A stretch of DNA of 53,160 bases from Rubripirellula sp. GTDB lineage: Bacteria > Planctomycetota > Planctomycetia > Pirellulales > Pirellulaceae. The DNA lies in the NCBI GenBank assembly GCA_051010815.1, contig JBPCVD010000761.1, forward strand, positions 1 to 53,160, written 5' to 3'. The position numbers and the translations under genes are program-made. Below, one piece after another: positions 21,440 to 50,524 of the stretch. The number at the start of each line of letters is the position of its first letter. Position 1 is the first letter of the stretch. The notes under the pieces were generated by a model. That model made no database searches, had not been told where the DNA came from, and was given only the letters and a program-made list of their open reading frames with translations.

Positions 21440-22423
21440 TCAGACAAAGACGAAACCCTCCATCGGGTAACGATCATCACCTGCGACTCGCAGATGATCA
21501 GCGTCGCGGACAGCATTCCATCCACCCACACCAGCTAAGACTGCATCAATCGCGTCGCCGCCAGAGTCTTTCATGATCAAACGTCGTCGATGATCGGAGA
21601 TCGTTGCGCCGACGAATCGGTGACTTTGTTCGCAAGCTTCGGTCGTACCTGGAGATCTTGGACGGAGGGCGCCGAGAATTACTCGCCTCGTCTGTTGATG
21701 AATTTGACTGGGGGCTCGACCGGCGGTCTGCTTGTACCGAGTCGAAGGCAGCTTCGATCGTTTCAAAAAGGAAGCAGGACAGGATTCGACAACCAGACGC
21801 TGAGCTGAGCGAACCTTCTCGTACTGAAACGGTAAAATCGCCGTGCACGCGGACTCCGAGAGGGGAAGGAGAACGTCCCGCATGCCATGAAAGGTCTGGT
21901 AAATGATGCGGTAGTGGTAGCTGTCGAACGGGGTTGCGGTTTCGAGGTCCGTTCGACGTCGCACTCTGCCTGACGAACGCCGGGAAGCGAGCTGAGCGAT
22001 CGTTCGTCCGAATTCGGCGGCCAAGTTCCGGGTGTCGCTCAATGATCTTTCGAAGCTCTGAACCTGCCACAATTGCCCGGTCCAGGACTCTCCTCCAAGT
22101 TCCAGGGGCAAAGCAAACGGGAAGTCCATCGCCCACAAAGTGTGCTGACTGGCAAGAATGCGTTGGACCAGGAACTCGCAGACGAGCTCCCGATTATCCG
22201 ACCCAGCAAGCCTTCCCAACGAACTTAGGCCCGTCAATTGAAGCGCCGAATCGTCGCCGCAGACCTCAAATTCCGCCAGCCACGCCGTTTTCCCCGAATT
22301 TCGGGCGCCGCTGAAGTCGACACCGCAGACGCGTTGGATCGGCGGCAATGGCGGTGGAACGTCATCGGTCGCGTTGACGAGGTCGGTCGAGCTAGTGAGA
22401 ATCGGGTTTGGTGACGTTGGCAC
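21440..22423 (-). CDS. DUF429-like predicted nuclease (RNase H-like fold)
   Basis: GVDFSG, DFPF.LP, RRxTD, VESx[10 protein letters not shown]. Start uncertain (GTG 22423 or ATG 22474). Confidence 0.7.
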
Positions 22424-22502
22424 GTGTCTTGCGGTCAGGTTTGTGAGACTGAGGCTTGGTCCCGCTCGCCCCATTGAATTGATTCACCGAGAATTTGCTT
22501 TT

Positions 22503-24494: not shown

Positions 24495-24777
24495 CCCCTC
24501 GATCTAGATCCCGCTCTTTCCCACCCGTTTGTGGGTGTATCGGCCGAAAAACATGGTTTCGACGGTCTACTCCGTCGCTTATCGAGTGGATCACGTGAAG
24601 TTGCTGGCGTTTCAGTAAGGCAGAAGACGCCTTTTTGAGCGGAACCTGTGGGCTCAACGGCGGTTTTCAGTAATAACATCTTCCAAACGCCCTTTTCATC
24701 AATACCCTGCGGCCTGCTTTCGCCGTGGCTCGTGATTCGCCGGCCCACGGTCCTGCAGCGGACCCAATGAGATCAGT

Positions 24778-25476
24778 GTGACACAACTACAAGAAGCCTG
24801 GAAACAACTCGAAGGGACGATCACGACGGACCAGAACATCTCGGCTCTGCGTCTGACCGCGTATCTTTTTTTCGCTGGATTCCTTGCGTTGTACCTCCGA
24901 CTTCTCTATCGCAAGTGCAGCGCGTCGCCGTCTGATACCGAATCATTTTCGCGAGTCTTCCCGCTGCTTGCCATCATCACGACGGCTGTTATCGCCGTGG
25001 TGAAATCTTCCTTGGCGCTGTCGCTGGGGCTGGTCGGTGCGTTGTCGATCGTACGGTTCCGGGCGGCCATCAAGGACCCAGAGGAGCTTGTCTATCTGTT
25101 CCTGTGCATTGCGGTTGGCTTGTCGCTTGGTGCCGAACTGCCCCTCTTGGCGATCGCGCTGGTCGCAGTCGCTACGTGCTTCATCTTGATCATGCATCTT
25201 TCGGTCAACAGTCAACGCCGACATCGACTGTTGCTGACGATCACGGGTGATTCGGATCGCCACTTTTCGTCAGGTGATCATAGCGTCCTGCCGACGGTTG
25301 AAGCGATCGCGGGTAAGTACACGTTGCAGCGGTTCGACGTGGAAGACGGCCGTGGCCAAGTTCGAATCGTCTTGGGTGAATCTAATCCTGAGAAGACCGC
25401 CAACATCGTTGCGGAACTTCGAAAGCGTCTGCCCGATTGCGACCTGTCTTACGTCAATCTCAACTCAACGCTCTAA
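24778..25476 (+). CDS. DUF4956-family membrane protein
   Basis: SSLALSLGLVGALSIVRFRAAIKDPxELxYLF signature, 4-5 TMs and a soluble C-terminal domain. GTG start. Confidence 0.88.
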   Translation: MTQLQEAWKQLEGTITTDQNISALRLTAYLFFAGFLALYLRLLYRKCSASPSDTESFSRVFPLLAIITTAVIAVVKSSLALSLGLVGALSIVRFRAAIKDPEELVYLFLCIAVGLSLGAELPLLAIALVAVATCFILIMHLSVNSQRRHRLLLTITGDSDRHFSSGDHSVLPTVEAIAGKYTLQRFDVEDGRGQVRIVLGESNPEKTANIVAELRKRLPDCDLSYVNLNSTL

Positions 25477-25489
25477 GCTTATCGCTCCA

Positions 25490-26248
25490 GTGATCGCCAA
25501 ACTCCCTCGTCCGTCATTAGCGCCAACGTTCACCGTTGTCGATGCGGAAACGCGTGAGGACTTGGTCAGTCGCCGCGAAGTCAAGTACGCAATCGATCGC
25601 GTCGATGTTGGCAAACTCCGCCGACTCTTGGATGGGAATTGCGAACGTTTAGTTCACAACCACAAAGTCTCGCTGGTGCGAAGCATCTACTTTGATGACG
25701 CACAGCTGTCCGCCTGCCGCGCCAACTTGAATGGACTCAGTGCTCGCCGCAAATTTCGCTTGCGTTGGTATGACTCGTTGCAGCCGCAAAGAGATTTTTT
25801 CTTCGAGATAAAATGGCGCGACAACCGCGTGACTGGAAAGCACCGTTTTCAACTCAGGTCCGAGACGCCGCTTCATGAGATGACTTACGCTCAAATCGTG
25901 CGGCAACTCGAACATCGCACGCCCGAGTACTTGATTCGCGATCTGCTTTTGTACAACGAGCCGATTGTCATCGTCGAATACAAACGCGAACACTTCTCAA
26001 CGGGTGACGGATTGCGAATCACGCTGGACTATGACCTTACCTACTACGACCAAACAGCGAAACGCAGTGTTTCAACTCGGTTTCCGCGGCCGCTAGAGGG
26101 GCTTGTAGTTTTGGAAGGCAAGACGCCGGTGGGGCGGGAGACCGAACTGAGACGCTGGCTACATCCGCTTCAGGCTCGAGCGACACGATGCTCCAAGTAT
26201 GTGCACGGCTGTCGCATCGTTGGCCTCATTCGAGACAGCGAACTGTAG
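25490..26248 (+). CDS. VTC / polyphosphate polymerase domain protein (CYTH-like tunnel fold)
   Basis: RxExKY, SIYFD, RxKFRLRWY, FEIK, YxR, RITLD, VLExK, SKY. GTG 25490 lies 13 bp after the DUF4956 stop. Confidence 0.88.
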   Translation: MIAKLPRPSLAPTFTVVDAETREDLVSRREVKYAIDRVDVGKLRRLLDGNCERLVHNHKVSLVRSIYFDDAQLSACRANLNGLSARRKFRLRWYDSLQPQRDFFFEIKWRDNRVTGKHRFQLRSETPLHEMTYAQIVRQLEHRTPEYLIRDLLLYNEPIVIVEYKREHFSTGDGLRITLDYDLTYYDQTAKRSVSTRFPRPLEGLVVLEGKTPVGRETELRRWLHPLQARATRCSKYVHGCRIVGLIRDSEL

Positions 26249-26289
26249 TCTGTTACGCCAGCAAGTTTAAACGCAAGAGAACGAACCCG

Positions 26290-27834
26290 ATGCATCGAAT
26301 CGCGATTGGATTAGGCGCGCTGCTGCTTTCGGGTAGCTTCCTGGCCGTCGCCCCCCAGTTGCTTTCTCAGTCACCGTCCGAGGGTGATCTCGAAACATCG
26401 GTTGTCAATCTCTTTGGCAATCGAGACCAAGATCAGTCCAGACCACAGGCATTTCGAAGCTACCACGAAAGCGACATGTGGGGTGCAGACGCCACCTTTT
26501 TGCCGTTGAATCCAGGGGTTGCTGTTGGGCGTCTCCGCCTGATCCAACCGGATGAAATACCGAACCGGCGTGACATCGCGGTTTACGACTCTTTGCCCGA
26601 GGAAGTGCCTCCGGTGGCCGGCGTGATCTCGTCTTTTCGCCAAAGGCCCCTGGATCATCTCAACTTGCGTGCCGTGCGGGACGCCGTACCGAATGCGTAC
26701 ATCGCCCAGGCCACGACCGACGAATCCATCAGGCCGCTGATTGGCAGTTGGGTCGCCTACGACGTGACAATGAATGGGTTCGGCATTCGGGAAGCGACAG
26801 CGGAGGAGATCGATGCGCACGTCGCACACGTTCGCCCGATCAGACCACAAGTGCCCTCTCGAGATCTATCACCAAAACGCATTCGAAGGCTCACCGAATG
26901 CAGGTTTGGGGATGCGCCGAGCATCGGGGTAAAGGCCGCAAATATCGCAGCCATGCACGATTTCGGATTTGCGGCGGAAGTCGTCCCAAATGGTTTCGCG
27001 ATTCCGTTTTCGTGCTACGACGAATTCATGAAGCACAACGACCTGTACGACTACGCGAAGCACATCCTCAACAATCCCGCTTTCCGCCGCGACAGAGACG
27101 TTCAGATTTCCGAGCTGAAAAAATTCCGGACGTTGATCAAGAAAGGAAAGATGCCGGATCGCATGATGGAATCACTCGCTGAGCTTCAGCGGTCGTTTCC
27201 GGTCGGCACGTCGATTCGGTGCCGCAGCAGCACAAACAACGAAAACATTCCTGGATTCAGCGGCGCGGGTCTCTACGACTCGTTCACGCATCATCCCGAC
27301 GAAGGACATTTTTCGAAGTCAGTCAAGCAAGTATATGCGAGCCTCTGGAACTTCCGCGCGTTCGATGAGCGTGAACTCTACGGCGTCGATCACTTCGCAT
27401 CGGCCATGGGCGTTCTTGTCCACCCAAACTTTCAAAGCGAACGAGCGGGCGGCATCGCCGTCACGAGCGATATCCTTCACCATACTGACGATTATCACTA
27501 TGTGATCACAGAGCTTGGTGAAGATCCTTCGCAGGAAGCCAATGACGCCGCACCTGAGGAACTGCTATTGAGTTGCCGGGGCATCGGGAAGGATCACCAA
27601 ATACAATATCCCGGGCAGGCAATTCGTCAAAAAACCCTGCTTCCTGAGGCGTCGCGAGAAGAGCTTCGCCAATACCTGGGAACGATTCACCACAAGTTCA
27701 TGCAGCTTTACGGAATCAGTCCCGAGACATCCGACTTCGCAATGGAAATCGAGTTCAAGATCACCAAGGACGGCGAACTTGCGATCAAACAGGCACGCCC
27801 TTGGGTCGCCGCAACCATCAATCCAGCAAGATAG
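26290..27834 (+). CDS. exported PEP/pyruvate-binding (PPDK_N, ATP-grasp) dikinase-like protein with an upstream phospho-His-type domain
   Basis: Hydrophobic signal-like N-terminus; AGVIS...PLDHLNLRA; GVKAAN, VPNGFAIPF, RSSTNNEN.PGFSGAGLYDS, VYASLWN.RA, MGVLV, EIEF, QARP. Confidence 0.82.
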   Translation: MHRIAIGLGALLLSGSFLAVAPQLLSQSPSEGDLETSVVNLFGNRDQDQSRPQAFRSYHESDMWGADATFLPLNPGVAVGRLRLIQPDEIPNRRDIAVYDSLPEEVPPVAGVISSFRQRPLDHLNLRAVRDAVPNAYIAQATTDESIRPLIGSWVAYDVTMNGFGIREATAEEIDAHVAHVRPIRPQVPSRDLSPKRIRRLTECRFGDAPSIGVKAANIAAMHDFGFAAEVVPNGFAIPFSCYDEFMKHNDLYDYAKHILNNPAFRRDRDVQISELKKFRTLIKKGKMPDRMMESLAELQRSFPVGTSIRCRSSTNNENIPGFSGAGLYDSFTHHPDEGHFSKSVKQVYASLWNFRAFDERELYGVDHFASAMGVLVHPNFQSERAGGIAVTSDILHHTDDYHYVITELGEDPSQEANDAAPEELLLSCRGIGKDHQIQYPGQAIRQKTLLPEASREELRQYLGTIHHKFMQLYGISPETSDFAMEIEFKITKDGELAIKQARPWVAATINPAR

Positions 27835-27836
27835 TA

Positions 27837-29264
27837 CTAGACCAAAATGTCTCGGACGACATGAGCCTCTTCAACGCCGGTCAAACGCATATTGAGGCCT
27901 TGAAACTTAACGCTGAATCTCTCGTGGTCGATGCCTAAGAGGTGCAGAATTGTCGCGTGCAGGTCTCGTACGTGCACGGGGTTGTCCACGACCGAGAGCC
28001 CAAGTTCATCTGTCTTGCCATAACAGATTCCCGGCTTCACACCTCCACCAGCCAACCAGAGTGTGTAGGCGTCGATGAAGTGGTCTCGACCCCCGACTTT
28101 GTTATTGCGTGTCTCACCCATCGGAGTGCGTCCAAATTCGCCGCTCCACAACACGAGCGTTTCGTCCAGCAACCCTCTTTGTTCGAGATCTTGAACGAGT
28201 GCTGCAGAGGCTTGATCGACTTGCGAACAACACTTTTCTAAATCTGTGCCAAGCGTCTGTCCGGGCCCCCCGTGATGATCCCAGTCCGTATGGTACAGCT
28301 GGACGAATCTCACACCACGTTCCACCATGCGTCGTGCCAGAAGACAATTGTTTGCGAACGAGGCATCACCCCGTTTTGCCCCGTACAGCTCCATCGTCGA
28401 ATCGGATTCGTCGGAAACGTCCATCAGCTCAGGCGCGCTCGATTGCATTCGGTACGCCATCTCGTACGCAGCGATGCGAGTTTCGATCTCACGATCACCC
28501 GTCGCCGCCAATCGCTGCTGATTCAGCGTCGCAACCGCGTCGTAAAACTCTTGCTCCCTGCGACCGCGAAAACCCTCCGGACTCGTTAAATTCACGATCG
28601 GATCCCCGCTACTGCGAAAGGGGACACCCTGGTGCTTCGAGGGCAAGAAGCCGCTCGACCACAATGCCGCTCCCGCACGAGGGCCTCGGGGTCCGGATTG
28701 CAGCACCACAAAACCGGGAAGGTTGTCACACTCACTGCCGATTCCGTAATTCACCCACGACCCCATACTGGGACGACCCGGCTGCGGCGATCCCGAGTTC
28801 ATGAAAATCTTGGCGGGACCATGGTTAAAAACGTCGGTGTGCATACTGCGCACGAAACAAAGTTTGTCGGCGATTTTTCGGTGATGCGGCAGTAACTCGC
28901 TAATGTCTACGCCTGAATCGCCACACTGCTGAAACTTGCGTTGACTCCCCAACAATTTCGCTTTCTTGCCAAGAAAAGAAAAACGTTTGCCTTCGATGAA
29001 TTCTGCGGGTGTCGCCTTTCCGCTGAACTCATTGAGCTTTGGCTTGTGCGAAAACAACTCGAGTTGACTTGGTCCGCCAGCCATGAACAGGAAGATGACG
29101 TTCTTGGCGCGAGGTGGGTGGTGAAGAACACCGATACGCTCTTCGCTGGCAGTCGCTTCGCGCGCCAGCAAATTCGCTAGCGCAATCGATCCCAAGCCGA
29201 TTCCACAATCTTGGAATAGTTGCCGTCGAGTCGCAGTTCGGCGAGAAAAATCGTCTGTATGCAT
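27837..29264 (-). CDS. DUF1501 domain protein (planctomycete sulfatase-like family)
   Basis: TRRQLF Tat-like leader, FLFMAGGPSQLE, ARRxVERGVRFVQ, WDHH, GEFGRTP, GRDH, VHVRDLHATILH. Confidence 0.92.
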   Translation of the reverse strand: MHTDDFSRRTATRRQLFQDCGIGLGSIALANLLAREATASEERIGVLHHPPRAKNVIFLFMAGGPSQLELFSHKPKLNEFSGKATPAEFIEGKRFSFLGKKAKLLGSQRKFQQCGDSGVDISELLPHHRKIADKLCFVRSMHTDVFNHGPAKIFMNSGSPQPGRPSMGSWVNYGIGSECDNLPGFVVLQSGPRGPRAGAALWSSGFLPSKHQGVPFRSSGDPIVNLTSPEGFRGRREQEFYDAVATLNQQRLAATGDREIETRIAAYEMAYRMQSSAPELMDVSDESDSTMELYGAKRGDASFANNCLLARRMVERGVRFVQLYHTDWDHHGGPGQTLGTDLEKCCSQVDQASAALVQDLEQRGLLDETLVLWSGEFGRTPMGETRNNKVGGRDHFIDAYTLWLAGGGVKPGICYGKTDELGLSVVDNPVHVRDLHATILHLLGIDHERFSVKFQGLNMRLTGVEEAHVVRDILV

Positions 29265-43296: not shown

Positions 43297-45447
43297 GTGA
43301 CTCTTGGGGAGCGATATTCTAACAACATGGCTGTCGCGCTAAAGATCGGATCCGCGCTTCGATCCGTTATGTTGGCATGCGTGGAATTCTCATCTGCAAA
43401 ACCCAGCCGCCATGCAATCACAGCTTCCAGCTGCCCTTCTTGGGTTCGTGGTTGTGTGATCGTCGTCTCGAGTTTCATTGGTTCGACTACAACGGTCGCG
43501 AGAGCTCACGACAATGCGTTTCTGCCTAGCGGAAGTCACGACATCGGGTGGCCGAATGTTCGTGGGCCGAAGTACGATGGAAAATCGCCAGAAATTCACA
43601 TCGCCGATGAATGGCCTGCTGACGGTCCGCCCGTATTGTGGATCAAGGAGCTTGGACAGGGCTACTCCTCGTTCGTGGTTCAGGACGATCGCGCTTACAC
43701 GCAATACCAGTCGCTTGCCGGACAATACGTCCTCTGTCTAAACGCGAACACCGGTGAAACGCTTTGGAGCTATCGCTACGACTGGCCATTCGAAGCGACG
43801 GGACTCTACCCCGGCCCGCGTAGCACACCCACGATCGCAGCGAATCATATCTTTTTCGCAACACCCGCTGGCGACGTCGGTTGTCTCGATGGAACAGGTC
43901 GACTGAAGTGGCGGAGAGAATTGAAACAGGAATTCGATGGGAAAGGTACAGGTTTCGGTTACGCCTGCTCACCCACTGTTGTTGACGGCAAGGTTTTGAT
44001 GCCGGTCGGTGGAACAGAGGCCAGCATGGTGGCATTGAATGCGGAAAACGGCGACGTTCTTTGGACCTCTGGATCTGCATCAGCTAGCTACACTCCCGCC
44101 TTCCCAATCGAGGTTGATGGCAGACGCCAAGTCATTGGCTATCTCGAACACGAACTCGTGAGTTTTGACATTGAAACGGGAGAGGCCTTGTGGAACACAG
44201 TCCTCTCGCGCGGGTACGACGAACACTCCGCATGGCCAATTTTTGATGGCGAGCATCTATGGTGTTCCGCGCCGTTTCAATCGGGATCGCAATTATTCCG
44301 GCTTTTGGGTGGCGACTCCCCATCGCTGCAAAGAGTTTGGCAATCGACCACGATGTCCAACGATGTCTCATCCAGTGTGGCAGTCGATGGTCATCTGTTC
44401 GGCTTCGATCTTGCGGAAGCCCAAACCAAGGCTCACCGCCCCTCGCGCGGCAGCTTTAAATGCGTCGAATTTCTCACCGGCGATACAAAGTGGATCAATG
44501 GTGATCCACGCGAGCGGCGAAGCACCAGTTACGAAGAGAACGCAAAATCGCAGACCATTGGTCATGCGAGTCTTCTCGCTGTCGATGGAAAGCTCATTCT
44601 CTTCAACGATCTCGGCGACCTCATTCTTGCCAGGGCCGATGCTCAGCAGTACTTAGAACTTGGCCGCGCACCGGCTTTGCCGGGCGAAATCAGCTGGACG
44701 GCACCGGCGATGGATCGTGGACGAGTATTCCTCCGCAACCATTCGCGGGCCGTTTGCATCTACATCGGTGATCCTGACCTGCTGGATCGGACTCGCGACG
44801 TATCACGTATCGCTGACGTTCCTCGAGGAAGACCACGTGACTTTTCGAGGTTGCTCGGGGTTGAGCCGGAGTATGCCATGGATCCGCCGACTCAACGTTG
44901 GTTGTGGACTTGGTATGCCGTGTCGATTGCAATTTTGCTGGGAGCGGCGATCCTGAGTGCGGGATTCGCAGGGGCATTTCGGTTGTGGCGTAGGCCGGAA
45001 TCAATCCGCCTCATCTATTGGGGACTGACATTTTCGCTTGGCTTGGTCACCGGTTCCGTCGTGAGCATGCTGACCAACGATTTCGTATTCACTTGGCCTG
45101 TCTGCCTGTTCATCGCGTGTCAGACCACCTTGTACCACGCCAAACCTCGTCATCTAGGTATGCGAAGCCGCCGCGATCTCTGGCGGGACCGCGTGTTGGC
45201 CGTCGGCTTCTTGGTGGTGTGCATGCTCTATCTTTGGGTTTGTCGCCGTCTGAGTTTGGTCACGGAATGGGTATTCCTGTGTGGACTGATGGGAGGGATT
45301 CCTTTCTTACTGGCTGGACGTCGCCTAACGTCACGGGGGCTCGGTGGCCTTGCGGTTGAACTGGCGATGACCCTTCTCGGTTTCAGCGGTTTCTACGCGC
45401 TGTCCGTGTTGATTCTCAGCTGGAAGTACGAACTCAACACCTTCTAA
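43297..45447 (+). CDS. PQQ-like beta-propeller protein with a C-terminal multi-TM domain
   Basis: WPNVRGP, GQGYSS, GPRSTP, YACSP, WTAPA, followed by about six hydrophobic helices. True start is probably downstream of 43297. Confidence 0.8.
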   Translation: MTLGERYSNNMAVALKIGSALRSVMLACVEFSSAKPSRHAITASSCPSWVRGCVIVVSSFIGSTTTVARAHDNAFLPSGSHDIGWPNVRGPKYDGKSPEIHIADEWPADGPPVLWIKELGQGYSSFVVQDDRAYTQYQSLAGQYVLCLNANTGETLWSYRYDWPFEATGLYPGPRSTPTIAANHIFFATPAGDVGCLDGTGRLKWRRELKQEFDGKGTGFGYACSPTVVDGKVLMPVGGTEASMVALNAENGDVLWTSGSASASYTPAFPIEVDGRRQVIGYLEHELVSFDIETGEALWNTVLSRGYDEHSAWPIFDGEHLWCSAPFQSGSQLFRLLGGDSPSLQRVWQSTTMSNDVSSSVAVDGHLFGFDLAEAQTKAHRPSRGSFKCVEFLTGDTKWINGDPRERRSTSYEENAKSQTIGHASLLAVDGKLILFNDLGDLILARADAQQYLELGRAPALPGEISWTAPAMDRGRVFLRNHSRAVCIYIGDPDLLDRTRDVSRIADVPRGRPRDFSRLLGVEPEYAMDPPTQRWLWTWYAVSIAILLGAAILSAGFAGAFRLWRRPESIRLIYWGLTFSLGLVTGSVVSMLTNDFVFTWPVCLFIACQTTLYHAKPRHLGMRSRRDLWRDRVLAVGFLVVCMLYLWVCRRLSLVTEWVFLCGLMGGIPFLLAGRRLTSRGLGGLAVELAMTLLGFSGFYALSVLILSWKYELNTF

Positions 45448-45527
45448 TGACGAGAGGTTTGCAGCAGGTCGGTAGCGTAAACCATGACCTAGGTTTCATC
45501 GGTGTCTACACATTGAGAGGAACCCAG

Positions 45528-47651
45528 ATGGCCACACAACCAGAATTATCGTCAAGCGCCGACCGAACATCCGCTTCGGTGACCCGCGGATCCATGTTCT
45601 GGTTCGCTGCGACAACGCTGCTGGGGGCTTTTCTGGTGTTTCAAGTCCAACCGGTGATCAGCAAGTGCGTATTGCCTTGGTTTGGCGGAACGCCGGCCGT
45701 GTGGACGACCTGCATGCTGTTCTTTCAGCTGCTGCTGTTCGGCGGTTACCTATACGCACACATTCTCCGCACCTGTTTTCGTCCGTTTTTTCAAGCATGC
45801 ATTCACTTGGTGCTGCTAAGCCTGGCTGCGATGGCACTTCCGATCGAGCCCTCCGACGCCTGGAAACCTACAGGACTCGAGTCCCCAACGCTCCATTTGC
45901 TGTGGATGCTGGCCGCCCACGTCGGCCTGCCGTATTTCGTGCTTTCGAGCACGGGACCACTCGTGCAGGCTTGGCTCAGCTATCGTGACGGGTCAGAACG
46001 TGTCTATCGGCTCTACGCGTTGTCCAATGCCGGATCTCTTGTCGCCTTGCTGAGCTATCCGTTCCTGGTGGAGCCAATCTTGTCGGTTAGCCATCAATCG
46101 ATGGTCTGGTCCCTTCTGTTCTGCCTCTTTGTGTTGGTTCAGGGCGCTGTTGCCATCGGCCTTTTCCGCACGCCGTCTCTCACCAGTAAAGCCTCTTCTG
46201 CGTCAAAGCAAACCTTGAACGAACACGCGTCGGCTCCAAGCAAGGCAAGCTGGAATCTTCGATTCATTTGGATAGCGTTGCCTGCCGTTGCCTCAACCGT
46301 TCTGCTCGTGGTTACCAATCATGTTTGTCAGGACGTCGCAGTCATTCCCTTCCTGTGGGTGTTGCCTTTAAGCCTTTACCTCCTCAGCTTTATCATCTGC
46401 TTTGACTCACCGCAGTGGTACAAACCAAAGTGGATCGCTGCCGGGACGCTAGTCGCAATTCTCATGATTCAGGCGAAGCATCTTCTACCGGGATCGATGC
46501 AGCTTATCGCCGAAGCATTGAGCTACATGATGATGTTGCTGGGCGTATGTTTGCTATGTCACGGTGAGGTCGCGAGGCTAAAACCTGACTCTTCCAAGTT
46601 AACGCAGTACTACATGCTGCTGTCTGCCGGTGGCGCCGTGGGCGGCATCATCGTCGCAATTGCATGCCCGATGTTGCTAAGCACCAATGTTGAATTGCCG
46701 TTTTCGCTGGCGTTGGTGACCGCTTTCGCATTCACGATGTTCTTCGCGTCAAGAGACTGGAACCGAGCGGCATATGATTGGACCTCGGCCTACCGATTGC
46801 GTTACGCCACCATGGGATTGATGGTCGCACCACTCTTTGCCATGGCTTTCGCGCCCCAAGACGAAACGATCGCATCGGAACGAAACTTCTTTGGCGTCTT
46901 ACAAGTGCTACGTGACCATCGCGGACTTCGACTCGTCCATGGCAGCACGATTCATGGCATGCAGCTCGATGGTGAGCGACGGAACGAACCGACGACCTAC
47001 TACGGTCGCGAAAGCGGGGTCGGGCTCGCGATCGCAGCCATGCAGACCGAGAAAGCGAATTTGCGAATTGGTGTCGTCGGTCTAGGTTGCGGCGTTTTGG
47101 CAACCTACGGGCGCGAGCAGGATCGATTCGACATGATCGAGATCAATCCAGCCGTGGTCGAGATCGCGAATCAGCACTTTACCTTTCTCTCCGGAAGTGA
47201 CGCGACCGTGCAAACGCACCTTGGCGACGGTCGCCTCGTCCTGGAACGCATGCAGAACGCACGCTTTGATCTACTCGTCCTCGATGCCTTCAGCAGTGAC
47301 GCGATACCCGCGCATCTTTTGACACGAGAGGCGATCCAGCTCTATCAACAGCGTCTTCAGTCCGATGGGCTGCTTGCAATTCACGTTTCCAACAACCACC
47401 TTGATCTCGTCCCCCTCGTACACCGCCTCAGCCAAGACGCCGGTTTGGATTCTCGCGTCGTGCGAAGTAGCGGTCGAGACGACGAGGGTACGCAGCACTC
47501 GACTTGGATGCTCATCGCCGCTGCGGACTGCTCGCTCTGGAGCGAAGTCGAACTTGCCGGGGCTCAGACTGCTAGCAAATCTGAACTCGCCAACGCGCCT
47601 TTATGGACTGACCAGCATCACAATCTGGTTAGCGTTCTAAGACTTTGGTAG
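45528..47651 (+). CDS. fused membrane (MFS-like) / spermidine-synthase-like SAM-binding protein
   Basis: FQVQP...LPWFGGTPAVW, YRLYALSNAGS, HGSTIHG, PTTYY, VVGLGCG, EINP, GDGR, DAFSSD, WTD. GAGAGGA RBS before ATG 45528 (ORF open from 45447). Confidence 0.88.
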   Translation: MATQPELSSSADRTSASVTRGSMFWFAATTLLGAFLVFQVQPVISKCVLPWFGGTPAVWTTCMLFFQLLLFGGYLYAHILRTCFRPFFQACIHLVLLSLAAMALPIEPSDAWKPTGLESPTLHLLWMLAAHVGLPYFVLSSTGPLVQAWLSYRDGSERVYRLYALSNAGSLVALLSYPFLVEPILSVSHQSMVWSLLFCLFVLVQGAVAIGLFRTPSLTSKASSASKQTLNEHASAPSKASWNLRFIWIALPAVASTVLLVVTNHVCQDVAVIPFLWVLPLSLYLLSFIICFDSPQWYKPKWIAAGTLVAILMIQAKHLLPGSMQLIAEALSYMMMLLGVCLLCHGEVARLKPDSSKLTQYYMLLSAGGAVGGIIVAIACPMLLSTNVELPFSLALVTAFAFTMFFASRDWNRAAYDWTSAYRLRYATMGLMVAPLFAMAFAPQDETIASERNFFGVLQVLRDHRGLRLVHGSTIHGMQLDGERRNEPTTYYGRESGVGLAIAAMQTEKANLRIGVVGLGCGVLATYGREQDRFDMIEINPAVVEIANQHFTFLSGSDATVQTHLGDGRLVLERMQNARFDLLVLDAFSSDAIPAHLLTREAIQLYQQRLQSDGLLAIHVSNNHLDLVPLVHRLSQDAGLDSRVVRSSGRDDEGTQHSTWMLIAAADCSLWSEVELAGAQTASKSELANAPLWTDQHHNLVSVLRLW

Positions 47652-49020: not shown

Positions 49021-49443
49021 TCAACCTCGAATCTGTTTCAAGATCGCGGCGAATACGAGTTCGTTTTCGTCAAAATCGCGACTCTCGGCCTGCATCTGAA
49101 TAACCACAGGGATGCCTTGCGCCGATGTGATGACGAGACGTGAGACGATCATTAGATCCAGGTAGTAAAAGCGAAAGTTGACGCACCGTTCGCCAGCGGT
49201 CGCTCCCTCGAGCTGTGCATCCTCGCGTTCCACTTCGTCATAGTCTTCGGAAATCGAATCGGCGACATCCTCGATGATCTCCTCGGCGATTTGGCCCTGG
49301 AGTTCCTTCTCCAACGTGAAGAAGCCACCGCTGGGAAGCTCCAGCGTCACCCCATCACCGCCTTCATCCTCATCCCGGTCAATCGTCTTCCAATTGTCCG
49401 GGTAGAGGAATTTGACGCCAAAGGATTCGAAGGTAGAGGGCAT
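49021..49443 (-). CDS. acidic hypothetical protein
   Basis: Protein-like segment from MPSTFESFGVKFLYPDNW. The upstream ORF extension overlaps the TPR gene and is discounted. Confidence 0.7.
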   Translation of the reverse strand: MPSTFESFGVKFLYPDNWKTIDRDEDEGGDGVTLELPSGGFFTLEKELQGQIAEEIIEDVADSISEDYDEVEREDAQLEGATAGERCVNFRFYYLDLMIVSRLVITSAQGIPVVIQMQAESRDFDENELVFAAILKQIRG

Positions 49444-49582
49444 GAGAGAGTCTCGGTTTAGGAAGCGGGCACTAAATGATGCACTAGATTGCTCCCCAAT
49501 CCCAGCCGTCCGCTCCGCCACCTGTGAGTCGCATTGCTTTATGTCACGCGTTTTTGGTACCTGAATCGTTTGAGCCGTCCCG

Positions 49583-50524
49583 ATGGGCCGAATGATGAAG
49601 CCGAAGGTAACACGAATTCTGTGCGGATTGCTGGGGTTGATTACGATCTCCAACAGCGGATGTCGCGCCATTCGGCACTTCGGTGAGGGCAGGCAGTCGA
49701 TCGCCGCGCGGCGTCTCTCTGGACAAGGATTCCAGGCGATGCACGACGGCCAGTGGGAAATCGCCGAAACGCTGTTCACCGACGCGCTGGAGGTCTCGAC
49801 GGCTGACGATCGTGCCCATTGGGGCCTGGCGGAGTCTTACTGGAAGCGTCAGGAAACCGAGCTTGCGATCGAGCAGATGGAACAGGCAGTCCGCCTGAGT
49901 GCGGGTGATCCCAAAATGGTCCAACGCCTGGGACACATGTATCTGCAGATCGGAAGACTTCAAGAGGCTGAGTCACACAGTCTATGGGCGCTCGAGACAG
50001 AGCGTGATTCAGCTCAGGCCTGGGCGTTGCGTGGCAATTACCTGAAAGCTGCGGGCAAAGACGACGAAGCGCTGGCAGCTTACCACCGAGCACTCGCGTT
50101 GCAGCCCGATTACCCCCAAGTTCAGTTGCAAGCCGCAGAGATCTATCACCTGAATCTCGAGTACGACCGGCTGCTGGCAACCCTGGATCGTTTGCAAGAC
50201 AGTGTCGGCACGGATGCCGCACCGGCGCGCGTTGACGTGTTGCGGGGAATCGCGATGAGGAATCACGAACGCTTCGAAGAAGCGCGGCGATGTTTTGCGC
50301 GCGCCTCAATCAAACCTGATGCCGATGCGACGGCCCACTTGGAATTGGCATCATTGGAAATGCAGACCGGCAACATTCCGCAAGCTCGTGCTTCCTTGGA
50401 AGTCGCCCATCAGATCGATCCCGACCTGGTCCGCGACGGCAGGTGGATGGAACAGCTGGACGATCACGAGCAAAGATTGGCGAAAGAGCCAACTGAAACT
50501 CCTGGCGTACCACAGCGTCGCTAA
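49583..50524 (+). CDS. tetratricopeptide-repeat lipoprotein
   Basis: Lipobox-like ISNSGC and multiple TPR-pattern helices (AxxxLA/LG...A...Y/F..A...P). Confidence 0.85.
   Translation: MGRMMKPKVTRILCGLLGLITISNSGCRAIRHFGEGRQSIAARRLSGQGFQAMHDGQWEIAETLFTDALEVSTADDRAHWGLAESYWKRQETELAIEQMEQAVRLSAGDPKMVQRLGHMYLQIGRLQEAESHSLWALETERDSAQAWALRGNYLKAAGKDDEALAAYHRALALQPDYPQVQLQAAEIYHLNLEYDRLLATLDRLQDSVGTDAAPARVDVLRGIAMRNHERFEEARRCFARASIKPDADATAHLELASLEMQTGNIPQARASLEVAHQIDPDLVRDGRWMEQLDDHEQRLAKEPTETPGVPQRR

Follow-up and report, generated by a model that had tools for sequence, protein, structure and literature searches.

Here we describe a three-gene cassette in a 53,160-nucleotide stretch of the planctomycete Rubripirellula sp. 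(assembly GCA_051010815.1, contig JBPCVD010000761.1, positions 1 to 53,160; hereafter the window), which encodes a DUF4956 membrane protein, a VTC-type triphosphate tunnel enzyme and a dikinase-family protein that combines a phosphohistidine (His) swivel domain with an ATP-grasp domain. The cassette is real, it recurs in other genomes, and it is apparently undescribed; it is a version of the CotH-type gene set in which the kinase is unrelated and likely exported. The three genes are all encoded on the forward strand with spacings of 13 and 41 bp in the open reading frame (ORF) list, so the tight co-directional arrangement and the roughly 280-bp upstream region described in a first-pass annotation agree with the coordinates. 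The family assignments made there (DUF4956, VTC and a PPDK_N-type dikinase) were recovered by Pfam profile search, all three above the cut-off. The features of the locus are as follows.

24495..24777, no strand: upstream intergenic region, 283 bp and gene-free; the flanking genes differ among relatives
24778..25476, + strand: DUF4956 membrane protein, 232 amino acids (aa) (Pfam PF16316, E 2.9e-13, above cut-off)
25490..26248, + strand: VTC-type triphosphate tunnel enzyme, 252 aa (Pfam PF09359, E 1.7e-27, above cut-off)
26290..27834, + strand: His-swivel/ATP-grasp dikinase-family protein, 514 aa, internally deleted, likely exported (PPDK_N E 1.5e-26, above cut-off)
26290..26376, + strand: signal-peptide-like N-terminus of the dikinase, residues 1-29, homologous to the N-termini of full-length relatives
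26377..26424, + strand: junction left by the in-frame loss of about 246 residues (alignment to the relative at locus L016; contig 20 of run X3)
26494..26808, + strand: phosphohistidine swivel domain, about residues 69-173 (His123 at 26656-26658)
26869..27810, + strand: PPDK_N-type ATP-grasp domain, about residues 194-507 (Pfam; model of a relative)

Dikinase loci were gathered by an alignment-based scan (a single-protein scan returned none), and nine of the 160 loci fetched adjoin VTC and DUF4956 genes. A search of the phylum Planctomycetota contributed five further loci with all three genes (trio loci). After merging L093, L139, and L203, which represent one organism, we obtained 12 distinct trio loci besides the window, nine arranged as DUF4956-VTC-dikinase and three as dikinase-VTC-DUF4956; the genes are separated by anything from a few to about 100 bp, and the flanking genes vary. 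The trio VTCs fall into two clades, each purely dikinase-linked (quick tree of 94 rows), and a single clade for them was rejected by the approximately unbiased (AU) test (p=0.013; 44 selected rows, 13 vs 31). Recurring dikinase neighbors of 236 and 537 aa were considered as divergent VTC or CotH proteins and rejected, as they are SRAP and UbiD.

We surveyed 301 Planctomycetota genomes (CotH at E≤1e-15; dikinase scored on three candidates per genome) and detected VTC in 85, CotH in 83, and the dikinase in 17. VTC is present in 16 of the 17 dikinase genomes versus 69 of the 284 others, and CotH in 69 of the 85 VTC genomes versus 14 of the 216 VTC-less genomes; p-values for these co-occurrences are overstated because related genomes are not independent. 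CotH was also identified in 12 of the 17 dikinase genomes. Sixteen VTC genomes have no CotH; four of these carry the trio (one is assembled as a single contig), and the four show no CotH match even when the threshold is relaxed to E≤0.001, which supports replacement of CotH by the dikinase. Five trio genomes encode one VTC each together with 1-13 unlinked CotH matches. The window genome carries CotH on contigs C12 and C790, away from the cassette, and the C12 copy is unlinked to VTC.

Gene neighborhoods were compared using local profiles at 85 VTC loci (80 chosen on score and contig size, five because they hold the dikinase). DUF4956 was found in 67 of these, CotH in 46, HlyD in 25, TolC in six, and the dikinase in five. 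In 25 loci (L222, L223, L225, L226, L227, L229, and 19 more), VTC and DUF4956 are directly followed by an HlyD adaptor, accompanied in six by TolC; no pump gene was apparent among the neighbors scanned at these loci. The dikinase was found together with neither CotH nor HlyD, whether among the 85 loci or in the trio cassettes. With every trio cassette free of CotH and four trio genomes lacking it altogether, the idea that an unrelated dikinase occupies the CotH slot, already put forward in the first-pass annotation, is supported.

Another type of VTC locus (L251, L262, L263, L265, L294, and L295) has no detected DUF4956; here the gene after VTC encodes a protein of 590-620 aa whose N-terminal part is a thymidylate-kinase domain. 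At four such loci VTC is preceded by an unknown secreted protein of 523-547 aa and a large LTD protein, and several genomes with loci of this type hold dozens of CotH candidates.

The window VTC protein, the product of the single VTC gene found in its genome, is soluble, with no signal or membrane segment, and consists of the VTC domain alone with no SPX domain (Pfam and sequence). When the VTC profile was compared with solved structures, all ten matches were to Vtc4, Vtc2, or Vtc3 (Vtc4 3g3q, E 1.3e-32). In the profile alignment, R90, R92, and E209 correspond to the catalytic R264, R266, and E426 of Vtc4, the residues mutated to inactivate that enzyme (PMC9911596). Across 90 VTC rows, R90, K108, K117, R166, R176, D180, E209, K211, and K236 are invariant. 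The N-terminal motif of the bacterial proteins is RxExK, in which the first glutamate is replaced (76 of the 90 have Arg there, which is also the Vtc4 residue) and the second, E30, is kept. Given this closeness to Vtc4, the VTC protein is likely a polyphosphate polymerase. The window genome (a Pirellulaceae-type planctomycete, 84.5% complete) has three PPK2 genes, and PPK1 was not found in this partial assembly.

The DUF4956 protein is modeled with five likely membrane helices and a C-terminal ACT-like domain (predicted local distance difference test (pLDDT) score 88). Two arginines located where the third membrane helix ends, Arg93 and Arg95, are invariant in 80 of 80 rows and, following the positive-inside rule, probably face the cytoplasm. 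The ACT-like fold gives structure matches of Z 8-10 that include the C-terminal domains of MgtC (2lqj, Z 8.7; 7qa5, Z 8.1), tied with many unrelated ACT domains. A Foldseek search with DUF4956 gave no match at E≤0.001, and no VTC membrane chain stood among the structure matches listed. The ACT domain filled these searches and the membrane part was barely probed; a kinship with the VTC channel may nonetheless exist. The likeness to MgtC lies in the membrane-plus-ACT layout: Pfam at E≤0.01 gives DUF4956 alone, and the MgtC/SapB membrane domain was not found. Its near-constant adjacency to VTC, the invariant arginines, and the HlyD/TolC neighbors in other cassettes suggest that DUF4956 is likely a conduit.

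The best 120 relatives of the window dikinase are 51-58% identical to it and mostly 650-900 aa long. They share a layout of signal peptide, optional EF hands, a 175-residue N-terminal domain (N-domain), the His domain, and a C-terminal ATP-grasp domain. The swivel histidine (His123 in the window protein) shows no exception (30/30 and 75/75). A structure model of the full-length relative L035 (pLDDT 90.5) matches rifampin phosphotransferase (RPH) and phosphoenolpyruvate (PEP) synthase. Residues 338-651 of L035 match RPH (5hv1; Z 30.4, root-mean-square deviation 2.5 over 290 residues), the match being confined to RPH residues 1-315, and residues 213-317 match the His domains of PPDK, enzyme I, and pyruvate kinase (Z 8.2-10.1). 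In the window protein, the Pfam PPDK_N match spans residues 210-505, and its ATP-grasp domain keeps K215, R312, E488, Q501, and R503. The NCBIfam scores of the window protein are far below the cut-offs (PEP synthase, 81.5 vs 598 bits; RPH, 47.5 vs 999 bits).

A profile of the N-domain recovered 686 clusters at 50% identity (E≤0.001). Among the best 150, 55 have room for more sequence, and 53 of these continue into the His and ATP-grasp domains. One Lys, one His, and one Gly are invariant in the N-domain. It had no match in Pfam (69 members scanned) or among PDB sequences, and an Atlas search returned low-score leads and the family's own clusters, nothing else.

The family is likely exported because signal-like N-termini coincide with type IX secretion system (T9SS), dockerin, and cadherin modules on relatives, in line with the signal-like N-terminus noted in the first-pass annotation. 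Signal peptides were scored with our own hydropathy rule (a basic followed by a hydrophobic N-terminus), which is satisfied by the window protein and by 100 of 113 full-length relatives. A T9SS signal was detected on seven of 18 chosen long relatives (one below the cut-off), and dockerin, LTD, cadherin, and Fn3 modules on others; stalks of Fn3, cadherin, or Ig type predominate in the first 26 of the 52 long cluster representatives. Besides the core, EF hands are the only module on the VTC-linked dikinases (13 linked rows, Pfam), and no glycan-binding module was found in these rows. With a signal peptide and EF hands only, the linked dikinases would stay in the periplasm.

Several other arrangements were observed around dikinase relatives. 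Proteins of about 1800 aa with FG-GAP repeats and a distant His/ATP-grasp core, mostly with a C-terminal dockerin, are encoded at L205 (1520-12356), L207, L209, and L212, and genome G242 has two such proteins in tandem. At L159, L162, L166, L167, L170, and L171, long dikinase relatives have a small gene of the histidine-phosphatase family (PF00300, one member scanned) immediately upstream, and the L162 relative carries a T9SS signal. At L020, L023, L034, and 19 further loci, a gene for a small secreted EF-hand protein is found 3' of the dikinase (in L016, 4514-5224). In three genomes of the window's genus (L176, L177, and L178 in G007, G006, and G011), a full-length dikinase unlinked to VTC lies 3' of a gene encoding a surface protein (2000-2700 aa) that bears lectin and dockerin domains. 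All 15 genomes tested from a Poribacteria clade (L018-L090) contain the dikinase, two to five CotH genes, and no VTC.

The window copy of the dikinase is itself truncated and fast-evolving, which the first-pass annotation had missed. Its residues 1-29 align with residues 1-29 of L016 and its residues 46-508 with residues 292-755, meaning that about 246 residues, comprising the EF hands and the N-domain, have been deleted in frame. The start at 26290 corresponds to the start of L016, the closest full-length protein, with which the window protein shares 15 of its first 29 residues. An assembly artefact is ruled out because contig 20 of run X3, which may come from the same study as the source genome, bridges the junction at a depth of 3.6. 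Among 181 close ORFs, 173 have the N-domain and eight do not; those eight comprise two copies of the window gene, four ORFs cut by contig ends, and two others. No N-domain was found elsewhere in the window genome at its 84.5% completeness.

With two outgroups agreeing, we counted 46 lineage-specific changes in the window dikinase vs 11 in L016, compared with 5 vs 7 in DUF4956 and 3 vs 5 in VTC. Of 143 conserved columns, the window protein departs from the family at 22, against a family median of 3; most of these changes lie in the His domain (7/36) and the last part of the ATP-grasp domain (10/42). The ratio of nonsynonymous to synonymous substitution rates relative to L016 is saturated, and the six read differences in the gene (three silent, three not) are too few to judge selection. 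The gene is thus likely decaying, although its 514 codons remain an open frame, His123 and the core ATP-grasp residues are retained, and the variable columns within the first part of the ATP-grasp domain change no more than the family average. Since the presumed acceptor domain is missing, we lean towards a loss of transfer activity; an altered function may also be considered because the frame is open and His123 and the nucleotide residues are kept. The VTC/DUF4956 pair is perhaps maintained in this genome for the unlinked CotH on contig C12.

As the likeliest of the readings considered, we tentatively propose a relay for the intact trio. A cytoplasmic VTC enzyme would make polyphosphate from ATP, and DUF4956 would move it across the inner membrane. 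In the periplasm, the phosphoanhydride would bind the ATP-grasp site of the dikinase and the swivel histidine (His123) would take the phosphate, after which the phosphohistidine would swivel to the N-domain, the presumed acceptor site, and pass the phosphate to an acceptor, for which the first-pass annotation suggested surface glycans or proteins. Each of these chemical steps is inferred; what was observed directly is the order of the genes, their families, the retained catalytic residues, the recurrence of the trio, the absence of CotH and HlyD from its cassettes, the export modules on relatives, and the deletion and excess change in the window copy. A wider version, which we hold to be less probable, is that the pair forms a split VTC-like unit for general extracytoplasmic phosphoryl supply, delivering polyphosphate to the periplasm or, via HlyD/TolC, to the surface, with CotH and the His-swivel dikinase plugging in interchangeably and polyphosphate replacing ATP.

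A number of observations weigh against the polyphosphate relay. The first is the retention of E30 in 88 of the 90 bacterial VTCs, where Vtc4 has Thr. This is a hydrolase-like trait: triphosphate tunnel hydrolases have an N-terminal ExExK motif with two glutamates, and most tunnel enzymes hydrolyse triphosphates (PMC9582702), so the bacterial VTC may have a hydrolase role. The VTC protein could in that case be a triphosphatase or polyphosphate hydrolase, and DUF4956 an importer or MgtC-like regulator, the pair recycling or sensing the phosphate products of exported kinases. The membrane-plus-ACT layout of DUF4956 and the fold matches to 2lqj and 7qa5 are consistent with such a regulator, but the tie with unrelated ACT domains, the exclusive matches of the VTC profile to Vtc structures, the Arg at the first motif position, and the HlyD/TolC genes beside VTC at 25 of the 85 loci, which point to export, make this alternative unlikely.

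Second, the ATP-grasp domain of the dikinase has ordinary PEP synthase/RPH nucleotide motifs, including equivalents of the ATP-binding residues Lys22 and Arg117 of RPH, and no sign of a switch to polyphosphate. CotH is ATP-dependent. These features would fit export of a nucleotide (ATP or a nucleoside polyphosphate) by the pair, serving as the ATP substrate of both the dikinase and CotH, the latter having been described as a protein kinase (10.1101/768473). However, exporting a nucleotide would not require a Vtc4-like enzyme, yet the catalytic residues show no variation among the 90 VTCs, and we regard nucleotide export as improbable.

Third, most dikinase copies are unlinked to VTC. Among loci with enough flank, 8 of 66 and 1 of 37 are linked, leaving about nine in ten unlinked. 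Linked and free copies are interspersed on the dikinase tree (at least five changes), so linkage has been gained or lost several times. Of the 50 genomes whose dikinase is unlinked, 22 lack VTC, among them every Poribacteria-clade genome (15 of 15); a dikinase without VTC also occurs in three genomes of the window's genus; and CotH is present in 25 of 26 VTC-less dikinase genomes. Both kinases thus persist where VTC and DUF4956 are missing and must obtain their donor in another way there. The linkage expected by the first-pass annotation recurs at 12 distinct loci and is facultative. All this, together with the long surface stalks of many relatives, could also reflect a loose co-regulation of extracytoplasmic phosphate genes, in which the dikinase would act independently of VTC/DUF4956 and use environmental or host ATP for scavenging or surface modification. 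We think this doubtful, as close linkage to the dikinase (a few to about 100 bp apart) is seen in each of two VTC lineages and four trio genomes retain VTC with no CotH. It is very unlikely that the dikinase runs in reverse, with polyphosphate phosphorylating the histidine at the N-domain and the ATP-grasp domain making ATP from AMP and pyrophosphate for an extracytoplasmic CotH: PPDK-type chemistry is reversible (PMC5371819) and CotH accompanies the dikinase in 12 of 17 phylum-sample genomes and 25 of 26 others, but four trio genomes have no CotH and the three invariant residues of the N-domain do not make a basic polyphosphate-binding surface.

Accessory genes for CotH, a polyphosphate polymerase, and DUF4956 neighbor Gram-positive pel loci (10.1101/768473), and the same set is listed in C. 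perfringens NELoc-2 (PMC2879425); in the accessible part of the former source, no function is given for the VTC/DUF4956 pair. The window cassette resembles this set in that its VTC and DUF4956 genes lie side by side and are accompanied by the gene of a predicted extracytoplasmic kinase, and differs in that the kinase is an unrelated His-swivel dikinase, with no adjacent cotH and no flanking pel genes. The eukaryotic VTC complex (Vtc4/Vtc3/Vtc1; 3g3q, 7ytj, 8i6v; PMC9911596) likewise combines a tunnel enzyme carrying the Vtc4 catalytic residues with a small membrane part bearing conserved arginines and a proposed coupling of synthesis to transfer. In the bacterial cassette, however, enzyme and membrane part are separate genes, there is no SPX or fused membrane domain, and DUF4956, which bears an ACT-like domain, showed no similarity to the membrane domain of VTC in searches that barely probed its own membrane part.

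In alpha-glucan water dikinase (GWD), the catalytic His domain precedes the C-terminal PPDK_N ATP-grasp domain, and both GWD and phosphoglucan water dikinase (PWD) carry starch-binding modules and a large glucan-binding region. These enzymes use ATP to phosphorylate alpha-glucan, with AMP and Pi as products. Judging from its sequence, the dikinase is GWD-like in this domain order yet not a GWD. The family differs from GWD/PWD (PMC12892837) by its unmatched 175-residue N-domain, signal peptide, and EF hands. As a further likeness to GWD/PWD, weak PF22973 matches were found in four dikinase relatives (E 0.001-0.008) and none in the window protein, and Pfam detected no starch-binding module in the window protein or the 13 linked rows. 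With PEP synthase, PPDK, and RPH (2ols, 5hv1; PMC4844700), the dikinase shares the ATP-grasp fold, the swivel His domain, and nucleotide-site residues. PEP synthase and PPDK consist of an N-terminal ATP-grasp, a swivel His domain, and a C-terminal pyruvate-binding domain (PMC4844700), whereas the dikinase has the reversed order with the ATP-grasp at the C-terminus, no pyruvate-binding domain, and a likely exported location; unlike RPH, it has no rifampin-binding domain between the ATP-grasp and His domains. A literature search, which left most subscription papers outside, turned up no publication that deals with the trio or the exported dikinase family; a preprint on giant proteins mentions PPDK_N only in a figure legend (10.1101/2023.11.21.568195).

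Around the cassette, a scan of the 283-bp upstream region for sigma-70 promoters gave none on the forward strand, and the single match, on the opposite strand, was at chance level. A convergent DUF1501 gene ends at 27837, 2 bp beyond the dikinase gene. Elsewhere in the window, three ORFs of 734, 344, and 252 aa (45447-47651, + strand; 21440-22474, - strand; and 49021-49779, - strand) had no Pfam match at E≤0.01.

The trio cassette is a candidate supply route for the phosphoryl donor of exported bacterial kinases, to which a second, unrelated kinase class has been attached twice, and such a repeated swap of kinase class is what a shared donor supply by VTC/DUF4956 would predict. Our results also flag a large, likely exported dikinase family (686 clusters) that we found in no paper. 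Because it is truncated, the window dikinase is ill-suited as a test subject; in Stieleria marina K23_9 (L035), which is in culture, the trio is intact, a single VTC is present, and the CotH genes are unlinked. If the proposed relay is true, bacteria could power phosphorylation outside the cytoplasm.

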